Shown here: positions 1 to 2,577 of the stretch, one piece after another
How the letters are laid out: the number at the start of each line of letters is the position of its first letter
Numbering within the stretch: position 1 is the stretch's first letter
Source: a phage
Sequence record: PZ049715.1
Reading direction: 5' to 3' (one strand)
Length of the DNA stretch: 2,577 nt
Translations under genes and position numbers: made by a program
Notes under the pieces: generated by a model
Told to the model about the DNA's origin: nothing
The model's input: only the letters and a program-made list of their open reading frames with translations
Databases searched by the model: none

Positions 1-34
1 AACGGTTAATTATTTATAAGGGAATTAATACGAT

Positions 35-100
35 ATAAGCCAATTGTATGATCGTTACGATTGGCTTATGACTGATTTTTCAAATGGCATTCTTTTTTTT
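35..100 (+). terminator. Candidate intrinsic terminator or structured element: 14-bp stem with 7-nt loop followed by T tracts
   Basis: 35-48 ATAAGCCAATTGTA pairs with 56-69 TACGATTGGCTTAT; the single non-Watson-Crick position (45/59) is a G·U pair in the plus-strand RNA. Loop is 49-55. T5 at 76-80 and T8 at 93-100 follow, but the first T tract begins 6 nt after the stem, so the geometry is imperfect. If real, it would terminate a plus-strand gene lying left of the window. On the minus strand the hairpin is preceded by A runs and not followed by a U run. Confidence 0.3.
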
Positions 101-228: not shown

Positions 229-558
229 TTATACAGCCATACGTTCACATTCCTCAGCGCACTTCATACAGGCTTTCGCGCACTCTTGGCAGTGATCCAT
301 CTGATGCTTGGCACACTCTTCACCGCAGGCTCGGCAAATTTTTGCACACAATGCACAGAACTCTTTAGCCAACTCGCTCTGGCGACTCATGAGTCTGGCT
401 GCCAGAGCACATATGTCAGCACAATCTCTGTCGAGCTCAATGCAACGGGCCATCGTTTGTACGTCGTCTTCAAGTAAACAGGCAGATGCGCATGCTTCGC
501 AAACTAGAGCGCAGTTAGAACAAGCTTGAATGCAGCTATTGAACATTGTTTCAGTCAT
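229..558 (-). CDS. Cysteine-rich four-helix-bundle copper-binding/storage protein (DUF326, Csp3-like), 109 aa, no signal peptide
   Basis: ORF with ATG at 558..556, preceded by GGAGGA four nt upstream; stop TAA at 231..229. Translation has 19 Cys in 109 aa, arranged in repeated C-x2/3-C runs (CIQAC, CALVCEACASAC, CIELDRDCADIC, CALCAKICRACGEEC, CQECAKACMKCAEEC) in an Ala/Glu/Lys-rich, helix-prone background, which is the hallmark of DUF326/Csp proteins. It sits directly downstream of a Cu-sensing two-component pair. The N-terminus (MTETMFNSC) is not hydrophobic, so the protein is predicted cytosolic. Confidence 0.75.
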   Translation of the reverse strand: MTETMFNSCIQACSNCALVCEACASACLLEDDVQTMARCIELDRDCADICALAARLMSRQSELAKEFCALCAKICRACGEECAKHQMDHCQECAKACMKCAEECERMAV

Positions 559-668: not shown

Positions 669-686
669 CATTACAATCGTGTAAGG
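669..686 (-). promoter_or_regulatory. Candidate copper-box operator: inverted repeat TTACA-N4-TGTAA, extended to CcTTACA-cgat-TGTAAtG on the minus strand
   Basis: Plus strand 671-675 TTACA and 680-684 TGTAA are exact reverse complements around a 4-nt spacer; the pairing extends to 669/686 with one mismatch at 670/685. It lies in the cusS-to-Cys-rich-gene spacer, about 110 bp upstream of the ATG, and a weak -10-like TGAATAT (minus, about 645..638) follows some 25 bp downstream. OmpR-family copper regulators are known to bind palindromic boxes near -35. Assignment is by position and symmetry only. Confidence 0.3.
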
Positions 687-743: not shown

Positions 744-2123
744 TTATTGGCGGGGAAATTCCATGTGAAAGCCCGTCACGCCGTCTAATGAGGTGCACCA
801 GATTCTGCCTTTATGGGCCTCAACAATAGATCTGGTAATAGCCAAGCCGAGGCCAGCGTTGCTTGGACTACCCTCGCGCCGGGCAGGATCGACCCGATAG
901 AAGCGATAAAAGAGCTTGTCCAGGTGCTCGGGCTCGATCGTCCCTCCGGGATTCTCGACGCTGAGGGTTACCGTTCTTTCCGCCTCGTGAATCGTTACAG
1001 AAATAGTTTCCCCTACCGGGGTGTAACGCAGCGCGTTGGATAACAAATTGGAGACCGCTCTATCAATCATTAATTTATCTCCCAGCACATTTCCTGCGCC
1101 TGAGACTGAGAGACGGATATCGCGTTCGTCAGCCACTAAGTGGTAATACGCAAGCAGTTTAGCAACGACATCAGCTAGTTCGATAGACGCTTGTTCGGGA
1201 ATAATCAAGCCGTTGTCGGATTTGGCCAAAAAGAGCATGTCGTCAATAATGCGTGACATACGCTTCAACTCCTCTAGATTGGAGTAAAGATTCTCCTCAT
1301 AAGCATCAATATTCCGCTTTTTGGTCAGCACCACCTCGGTGTGGGTCATGAGGTTGCTAACAGGGGTTCGCAGTTCATGAGCAATGTCCGCCGAGAAATT
1401 GGAAAGCCGAACAAAGGCATCTTCCAAGCGATCTAACATCGCATTGAAGGACAGAACCAATTGCTGTAACTCAAGCGGTATCGGTTCAAGCGGCATTCGT
1501 TCCTGCAACGACCTTGCTGACATCGATGCGGCGAGATGGGTAACTTGCCTCAGAGGCCTGAGACCGCTTCTAACTACCATCCAGCCAAGCGCAGCACTAA
1601 TTAGAGCGCTGACGCTTAATCCAACGCCGAACCAACGCTGCAAAGTCTGAAAGAAATGCGCGTGGTTAGTGACATCAAGAATCAACAGTGCTGTAAGTGG
1701 TTCGGGCTGGTCTGCTACCGAGATTCGGGCAGTCAATCCTCTATACAGGCGGCCGGCATATTTCCATTCCCACATATTCTGCTGTTCTGCGTCCCTATAG
1801 CTTTCCGGGACGTCGACTGTCTTGGGATCAGAAAAGAGCACTCTGCCATCTTCGCTCAAGATGGTCGCCGCTAAATCATGATGGGCACCTAGCAGAGCTC
1901 GCAACTGCGGTAGCTCCTCAGCAAGGTTTGCGCTGCTGCGTACGTTATTGAAAATTTTCTTGGTCGATTCGAGCTTCTCCACCAAGGCCTGCCGATCCAA
2001 CACTTCGAAGTGATGCTGGCTAAGCAAATTGAAGCTCAGCCCAGCTATGGTGAGAACTACAACCACCACAGACATGAACATGACACTCATTCGGGCGGTC
2101 AGCGAAAGGTGACGCAGTCTCAC
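744..2123 (-). CDS. cusS: Heavy-metal sensor histidine kinase (CusS/CopS family): TM1, periplasmic sensor domain, TM2, HAMP, HisKA, HATPase_c
   Basis: HisKA H-box [15 protein letters not shown] with phospho-acceptor His at 1377..1379. The following block [27 protein letters not shown] resembles E. coli CusS as I remember it. HATPase motifs: N-box [35 protein letters not shown]2-box [16 protein letters not shown]. Two hydrophobic segments ([23 protein letters not shown] and [21 protein letters not shown]) flank a periplasmic domain of about 130 aa. Start placed at GTG 2123..2121, which overlaps the upstream TGA as GTGA and keeps the family-typical SLTARM motif before TM1; ATG at 2090 is the alternative. 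The track's ATG at 2261 would overlap the regulator by about 140 nt and adds an Arg-rich, non-homologous extension. Stop TAA at 746..744. Confidence 0.92.
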
Positions 2124-2577
2124 TCCGGTGCATCCATCATATAGCCCATGCCACGCACGGTATGGATCAGTTTGTGCTCGAAGTCGTCGTCGACTTTTGC
2201 GCGCAGACGGCGTACCGCGACCTCGATAACGTTGGTGTCGCTGTCGAAGTTCATATCCCATACCTGAGATGCAATCAGAGACTTCGGAAGCACCTCGCCG
2301 CGTCGGCGCATCAACAATTCCAGCAGTGAAAATTCCTTCGCCGTCAGATCAATTCGCTTCCCAGCACGAACGGCGCGGCGCTTTAGCAGGTCCACTTCGA
2401 GATCTGAAATTTTCACGGTGGTTTGGGTGGGGGAGCCGCTGCCCCTGCGAAGCAATGTCCGGACCCTTGCCAGAAGTTCGGAGAACGCGAACGGCTTAAT
2501 CAGGTAGTCGTCCGCGCCCAGCTCCAGGCCTTTGACGCGGTCTTCCACGCCATCACGTGCGGTCAAGAACAGTACGT
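2120..2577 (-). CDS. cusR: Heavy-metal (Cu/Ag) two-component response regulator, OmpR/winged-helix family (CusR/CopR-like); 5'-partial, N-terminus lies beyond the window end
   Basis: The minus-strand frame stays open to the window edge (…[29 protein letters not shown]…); the M at 2566 in the ORF track is an internal TTG, not the real start. Visible are the end of the receiver domain (conserved K in LIKPF) and a complete winged-helix DNA-binding domain ([71 protein letters not shown]). Long stretches match the E. coli CusR sequence as I remember it. Stop TGA at 2122..2120. The symbol is family-level; copR, pcoR or hprR orthology cannot be excluded without a search. Confidence 0.9.

Follow-up and report, generated by a model that had tools for sequence, protein, structure and literature searches.

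Does the sensor kinase encoded in this stretch of DNA detect copper or silver directly and, if so, which of its residues would bind the metal? The window, that is, the whole 2,577-nucleotide stretch of record PZ049715.1 that was analysed, contains a histidine kinase gene whose predicted periplasmic domain bears a histidine motif close to each of its two membrane-proximal ends, and a further pair of histidines in mid-domain. The original prediction took these motifs as support for direct metal sensing in the manner of Escherichia coli CusS. Here, the gene, the fold of the sensor, the alignment of the motifs with the CusS ligands, their conservation and the surrounding genes are considered in turn.

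Gene organization and domain architecture

The window contains three genes, all on the minus strand, encoding a response regulator (partial), the sensor kinase and a Cys-rich protein. The kinase is encoded by a 459-residue CDS at 744..2123 (minus strand), identified by TIGR01386 and Pfam, that begins with a GTG at position 2123. This start codon overlaps the stop codon of the response regulator gene as GTGA, and the longest ORF for the kinase begins at an ATG that lies within the regulator gene. Because homologues begin with 'M(K/R)HLSLTARM' and, in the shorter form, the TIGR01386 profile begins to match at residue 6, residue numbering here starts with the GTG at 2123. TIGR01386 (cztS_silS_copS), the model for heavy-metal sensor kinases, matched residues 6-457 over positions 2-457 of the 457-position profile, with a score of 468.4 bits as compared to a cutoff of 292.55. 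Pfam detected a CusS sensor domain (PF21085) at residues 4-157 (50.0 bits, with a gathering score of 24.1; E 4.6e-13), as well as HAMP (183-235), HisKA (240-305) and HATPase_c (348-458) domains. The parts of the kinase are thus arranged in the order TM1, periplasmic CusS-type sensor, TM2, HAMP, HisKA and HATPase_c, with the phospho-His being H249 in the HELRTP motif of HisKA (codon 1377..1379, minus strand).

The response regulator gene (2120..2575, minus strand) is cut by the end of the window, so that the last 151 residues of an OmpR-family heavy-metal regulator are encoded here. This cognate regulator was recognized by TIGR01387 (E 3.7e-72), by the copper/silver regulator model NF007346 (E 4.6e-70) and by Pfam Trans_reg_C. 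Plus-strand ORFs are also found within the kinase region, at 1656..1874, 1697..1951 and 2010..2144. As none of these gave a Pfam match above threshold, they were treated as antisense artefacts and rejected as genes. With no Pfam match above threshold on the plus strand of the region and no Rfam family found in the window, the reading of the region as a kinase gene has no competitor.

Position of the histidine motifs and fold of the sensor domain

Hydropathy analysis, using 19-residue windows and a threshold of 1.6, revealed peaks flanking the sensor domain. TM1 corresponds to approximately residues 12-34 (2022..2090, minus strand), with the centres of the above-threshold windows falling on residues 14-28 and a helix that, in the AF2 model, runs on into the periplasm. 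TM2 corresponds to approximately residues 163-185 (1569..1637, minus strand), with a hydropathy peak centred on residues 174-176 and the C-terminal helix of the model spanning residues 152-174. The periplasmic sensor lies between the two, at approximately residues 35-162 (1638..2021, minus strand), and was assigned a PDC/PAS-like fold on the basis of the AF2 model, the PDB fold match and the profile.

Three motifs had been flagged in this domain, and examination of the minus strand verified the codon positions named for each of them. H37-H38-F39, in SQHHFEVLD, is encoded at 2007..2015 (H37, CAT, 2013..2015; H38, CAC, 2010..2012; F39, TTC, 2007..2009), while H154-A155-H156, in TNHAHFFQ, is encoded at 1656..1664 (H154, CAC, 1662..1664; H156, CAT, 1656..1658). 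H81-H82, in GAHHDL, is encoded by CAT CAT at 1878..1883 (H81, 1881..1883) and lies where helix 2 meets strand 1. The proposed placement of the first two motifs next to the membrane was borne out by the hydropathy peaks and by the terminal helices of the AF2 model, which put H38 a few residues beyond TM1 and H154 in the opening turn of the helix running into TM2. The description of these ends as 'His-rich' survived only in part. Histidine accounts for 6 of the 126 sensor residues, as compared to 9 of the 333 residues elsewhere (Fisher one-sided p=0.20), such that composition is not significant and enrichment was rejected as evidence. What does exceed chance is conservation at fixed positions, as considered below.

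In the AF2 model of residues 25-175 (mean pLDDT 93.2; pTM 0.85), long helices at the two termini (26-59 and 152-174) are accompanied by a second helix and by a sheet of five strands. When this model was compared with the PDB using Foldseek, the top match was 5ku5_B, the Ag-bound CusS sensor (E 9.3e-5; probability 1.00; TM 0.59/0.61). With a TM of ~0.6 and an rmsd of 7 Å, the match is moderate, which is due in part to the extension of the modelled helices into the membrane. Moreover, as the model is that of a monomer, interface geometry is assumed from CusS. At the sequence level, a single-sequence search of PDB sequences with the sensor domain yielded no match even at E <= 10. A profile built from 35 trimmed sensor domains was needed to reach the crystallised chain 5ku5_A, which it matched with an E value of 3.1e-6.

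Correspondence to the metal ligands of CusS

In earlier reports (PMC10100754, PMC7763554, PMC12589874), CusS is described as binding Ag(I)/Cu(I) at two kinds of site, namely, an interface site formed by H42, F43 and H176, carried on two helices that lead down to the membrane, and a second site comprising S84, M133, M135 and H145, located in a disordered loop. The H42/F43/H176 site is presented in two of the reports as the trigger of the conformational change (PMC10100754, PMC12589874), and the triad is reported to be required for copper resistance (PMC12589874). The corresponding residues in Pseudomonas aeruginosa CopS are H41, F42 and H140 (PMC7763554), and those in P. putida CinS are H37 and H147, as cited in PMC3140484.

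To relate the flagged residues to these ligands, the window kinase was compared with the translated product of E. coli K-12 cusS by BLASTP and by MAFFT L-INS-i, and a sensor profile was aligned with 5ku5_A. For MAFFT, 144 relatives, most of which show 20-35% sensor identity, were aligned together with the window kinase and E. coli CusS, giving a set of 146 sequences. BLASTP (38% identity; E 9e-94) paired H38-F39 with H42-F43, H154 with H176, H156 with H178 and H82 with S84, and the 146-sequence alignment reproduced these pairings. The profile, in turn, set 'HF..D' on 'VHFAEQD' and 'DIthHehF' on 'SIDFHLHY'. The predicted equivalence of the HHF motif and the CusS VHFAEQD segment was therefore recovered by all three approaches, each of which placed H38-F39 on H42-F43, and the flagged residues H38, F39 and H154 fall on metal ligands reported for the structurally characterized CusS sensor. 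The HAH motif fared less uniformly. H154 stands where CusS has H176, the third element of the interface site, but H156, corresponding to CusS H178, is variable. By alignment, H38, F39 and H154 are the counterparts of the CusS interface Ag(I)/Cu(I) site, and homology argues that the window kinase would sense metal directly.

E. coli CusS (5KU5) and the window kinase thus have in common PF21085, the fold, the domain order, the interface triad and the HFxxxD motif. They differ in that identity is 37.4% overall and ~14% in the Foldseek alignment of the sensor, and in that the window kinase scored 353.6 bits with the enterobacterial CusS model NF007345, short of the cutoff of 423, in a match confined to residues 136-458.

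Conservation of the motif residues among relatives

Conservation was next counted across the relatives and within a close clade of Pseudomonas/Stutzerimonas sequences showing at least 40% sensor identity (n=19). H38 is kept in 127 of 138 sequences (92%), F39 in 128 of 137 (93%) and H154 in 138 of 146 (95%), with the respective close-clade counts being 17/17, 16/17 and 18/19. D43 (codon 1995..1997, minus strand), the HFxxxD Asp that corresponds to CusS D47, is nearly invariant, being retained in 138/139 sequences (close clade, 17/18), and F157 in 136/146 (close clade, 18/19). Two independent alignments (A1 and A2) mark the same nearly invariant columns, with D43 being invariant in both. The remaining histidines behave differently, with H37 being kept in 32 of 138 sequences, H156 in 59 of 146 and H82 in 50 of 140. 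H81 is present in 116 of 140 (83%) and W120 in 122 of 141, and the complete H38-F39-H81-W120-H154 pattern is seen in 91 of the 146. By these counts, H38, F39 and H154 are the only family-wide elements among the flagged site residues, while H37 and H156 probably play an auxiliary or second-shell role in this clade.

The presence of H37 and H156 nonetheless raises the possibility that these residues join H38 and H154 of the other protomer in a site of higher coordination, suited to Cu(II) or another divalent ion or serving to tune affinity, unlike the situation in CusS and CopS. Such a site would account for the fact that the close clade keeps H37 in 15 of 17 sequences and H156 in 12 of 19, as compared to 14-23% and 33-38%, respectively, among more distant relatives. 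Furthermore, an extra histidine at another position, namely, 153 (giving 'HH'), is common among distant relatives and is present in 77 of the 146 sequences, and Myxococcus xanthus CorS is reported to use three histidines, namely, H34, H38 and H171 (PMC10100754). Yet, with both motifs being helical in the model, H154 and H156 (i, i+2) are predicted to project from opposite sides of their helix, with ~100 degrees separating H37 from H38. In addition, CusS also contains H178, which is not reported as a ligand, and close-clade relatives (P0011 and P0039) present Ser at position 156. An expanded site of this sort is accordingly considered improbable.

Genomic context and regulation

Stutzerimonas stutzeri, S. 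frequens and S. kunmingensis contain identical or near-identical copies of the kinase gene, and S. nitrititolerans contains 93% relatives. A kinase encoded on P. putida plasmid pKF715B shares 77.7% identity with the window kinase. In the S. stutzeri KOS6 locus (L003), of which the flanks at 2211..4813 and 8639..13321 were considered, one side contains a divergent DUF2933-like ORF and a gene encoding a copper P-type ATPase (TIGR01511, E 1.4e-176), and the other contains the Csp-like gene, IS21 istA/istB and an integrase fragment. Given the IS21 element and integrase fragment in the flank, as well as the identical kinase genes in several Stutzerimonas species, the locus is probably part of a mobile metal-resistance island. 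Copies of the kinase gene showing 100% identity also appear on 3-7 kb MAG contigs (L002, L006 and L013) binned as Rhizobiaceae, Bacillota and Noviherbaspirillum. These most likely reflect mis-binning or contamination or, failing that, very recent transfer of the island.

Downstream of the kinase gene, following a 185-bp spacer, lies a gene (229..558, minus strand) for a Csp/DUF326-type Cys-rich protein of 109 residues, 19 of which are Cys, that starts with MTETMF. The protein was matched by Pfam DUF326 (E 1.3e-15) and, below the cutoff of the model, by the Csp1-family model TIGR04401 (E 4.8e-10). It has the appearance of a copper-storage protein of the four-helix-bundle type. At window positions 34..80 (plus strand), downstream of the Csp-like gene, a hairpin with a 15-bp stem followed by a T-run resembles a terminator, which would end transcription of a gene converging from beyond the left end of the window.

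The spacer that separates the kinase stop codon from the Csp-like gene contains a CusR/HprR-type palindromic box, CATTACAatcgTGTAAGG (669..686, plus strand); for comparison, CATTACAAAATTGTAATG is the CusR/HprR box of E. coli (PMC9302797). TTACA-N4-TGTAA (671..684) occurs once in the window, as compared to 0.02 expected occurrences. A second perfect TTACA-N4-TGTAA, the sole other in the 13.4 kb KOS6 locus, precedes the regulator start by 67 nt (L003, 5248..5261). The regulator probably binds these boxes, and the presence of one ahead of each gene suggests autoregulation, together with direct control of the Csp-like gene.

Among named relatives, the closest is a kinase encoded on a P. syringae plasmid, after copABCD and copR, showing 55.7% full-length identity, the same sensor length class and the motifs S(Q/R)HHF (there SRHHF), GAH, WEW and TxHxHFF (there THMHFF). 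In both cases, the kinase gene comes directly after that of a response regulator. The two differ in their neighbours, which for the window kinase are the DUF2933-like ORF, the copper P-type ATPase and the Csp-like gene. The ORFs that were scanned in the ±6 kb around the kinase included no copABCD homologues, nor was cusCFBA seen beside the kinase within the ±6 kb examined.

Copper-type and zinc-type sensors

Membership in the family does not in itself fix the ligand, since CzcS, a zinc sensor, and HprS, a family member linked to hypochlorite in the literature, keep similar helices yet sense other signals. As such, it could be argued that the histidine clusters are incidental and that the conserved residues are purely structural, contributing, for example, to packing at the dimer interface, with the kinase responding to zinc, an oxidant or envelope stress. 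The statistically insignificant His enrichment of the sensor (p=0.20), the variability of H37, H82 and H156, and the existence of non-copper sensors in the family, such as HprS, would all agree with such an argument, as would the conservation of H81 and W120 in CzcS, the zinc ligands of which are different residues (PMC5540610).

P. aeruginosa CzcS (5GPO) is indeed related to the window kinase in fold and family, and shares with it the 'GH'-motif His and the conserved Trp, retained in CzcS as the His of 'LVAHSGL' and the Trp of 'FQSW' in the profile alignment. The functionally relevant Zn(II) ligands of CzcS are, however, H55 and D60 of helix 1 (PMC5540610), and the profile alignment to 5gpo_A shows these positions to be occupied by ~K56 and ~N60 in the window kinase. 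Judged in this manner, the window sensor carries a copper-type and not a zinc-type site. Moreover, the exact triad described as binding Ag(I) in CusS (PMC10100754) is present and 92-95% conserved, the same triad is reported to be required for copper resistance (PMC12589874), and the genes neighbouring the kinase are copper genes. An incidental origin of the histidines is hence decidedly unlikely.

The mid-domain histidines and the second CusS site

H81 and W120, the latter belonging to the MWEW motif just ahead of the short hairpin YAGR (codon 1764..1766, minus strand), are found in ~85% of CusS-type sensors and in CzcS, and have been assigned no function in the literature consulted. E. coli CusS itself departs from the family at these positions, having Y83 and L128, such that H81-H82 of the window kinase stands where CusS has Y83-S84. 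Because both residues also occur in CzcS, where the zinc ligands are H55 and D60, a structural role is more likely, with H81 and W120 most likely being a structural pair of the fold.

The original prediction had also drawn attention to GAHHDL as a further HH pair. The pair is present, but is unsupported as a pair of ligands. The Met/His loop of CusS (S129-N152), which bears M133, M135 and H145, is inserted after the position of W120. The window kinase presents the four-residue hairpin YAGR in its place and hence lacks both the loop and the second Ag site of CusS; with the loop so replaced, that site cannot exist in the window kinase. S84 is the sole second-site position with a counterpart in the window kinase, namely, H82. 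M117 was considered as the counterpart of CusS H145 ('MWEW' versus 'HSNW') and was rejected, as the 146-sequence and 4-sequence alignments both insert the whole loop after W120.

That H81-H82 could nevertheless provide a second metal site equal to CusS S84/M133/M135/H145, giving four ions per dimer, is highly improbable, for although H82 aligns with S84, H81 is found in 83% of relatives and W120 sits at the foot of the hairpin bearing the CusS loop ligands, the S129-N152 loop has been swapped for a four-residue hairpin, H82 is seen in just 3 of 19 close-clade members, loop-less CopS-type sensors bind ~2 Cu(I) per dimer (PMC7763554) and H81 and W120 also exist in CzcS, where functional zinc is held by H55/D60 (PMC5540610).

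In lacking the loop, the window kinase resembles P. aeruginosa CopS, which combines a short sensor with the H41/F42/H140 interface site and binds ~2 Cu(I) per dimer (PMC7763554). The ligand histidines are 116 residues apart in the window kinase, as compared to 134 in CusS and 99 in P. aeruginosa CopS (H41/H140; PMC7763554), making the window sensor intermediate in length between the two. In terms of signalling, CusS relies on autokinase activation, whereas in P. aeruginosa CopS phosphatase activity is switched off (PMC7763554, PMC11195947). The HELRTP motif of the window kinase, with T253, fits both modes.

A model for metal sensing by the window kinase

Taken together, the observations point with good confidence to a copper, and probably also silver, sensor kinase of the CopS/CusS family from Stutzerimonas, in which metal would be sensed via the H38/F39/H154 site. 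In these terms, the window kinase is an ordinary member of the family, the site, its position and its role having already been established for CusS, CopS and CinS.

By homology to CusS and CopS, the kinase would act as a dimer, with the helix leaving TM1 of one protomer bearing H38 and F39 and the helix entering TM2 of the other protomer bearing H154. Two symmetric interface sites would thereby be created, each predicted to hold a single Cu(I) or Ag(I) ion between two imidazoles, with the Phe ring packing on the ion. Metal binding would tie the membrane-proximal helices together, shifting TM1/TM2 and HAMP, and the kinase/phosphatase balance at H249 would move in the direction of more phosphorylated regulator. 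The regulator would then likely act at the TTACA-N4-TGTAA boxes ahead of its own gene and the adjacent Csp-like gene.

There is also an outside chance that, in the Stutzerimonas/P. putida/P. syringae CopS clade, the interface has been expanded by H37 and H156, such that the TM1 helix presents HH and the TM2 helix presents HxH, and that, separately, H81/W120 is a shared signalling element. Were this so, the expanded site could differ from those of CusS and P. aeruginosa CopS in affinity, metal preference or coordination number, and the H81/W120 pair would be more than scaffold, serving as an element common to copper and zinc sensors.

For the preferred reading, in which H38, F39 and H154 bind the metal, the family-wide conservation of these residues makes them the ones to mutate first, as the core of the site. 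H37 and H156 would follow as candidates for clade tuning rather than as core ligands, and H81 and W120 would serve as probable fold controls. Finally, being without the loop site, like CopS, the window kinase is placed in a short-loop, CopS-like branch of the family, for which ~2 metal ions per dimer would be expected, as opposed to four.
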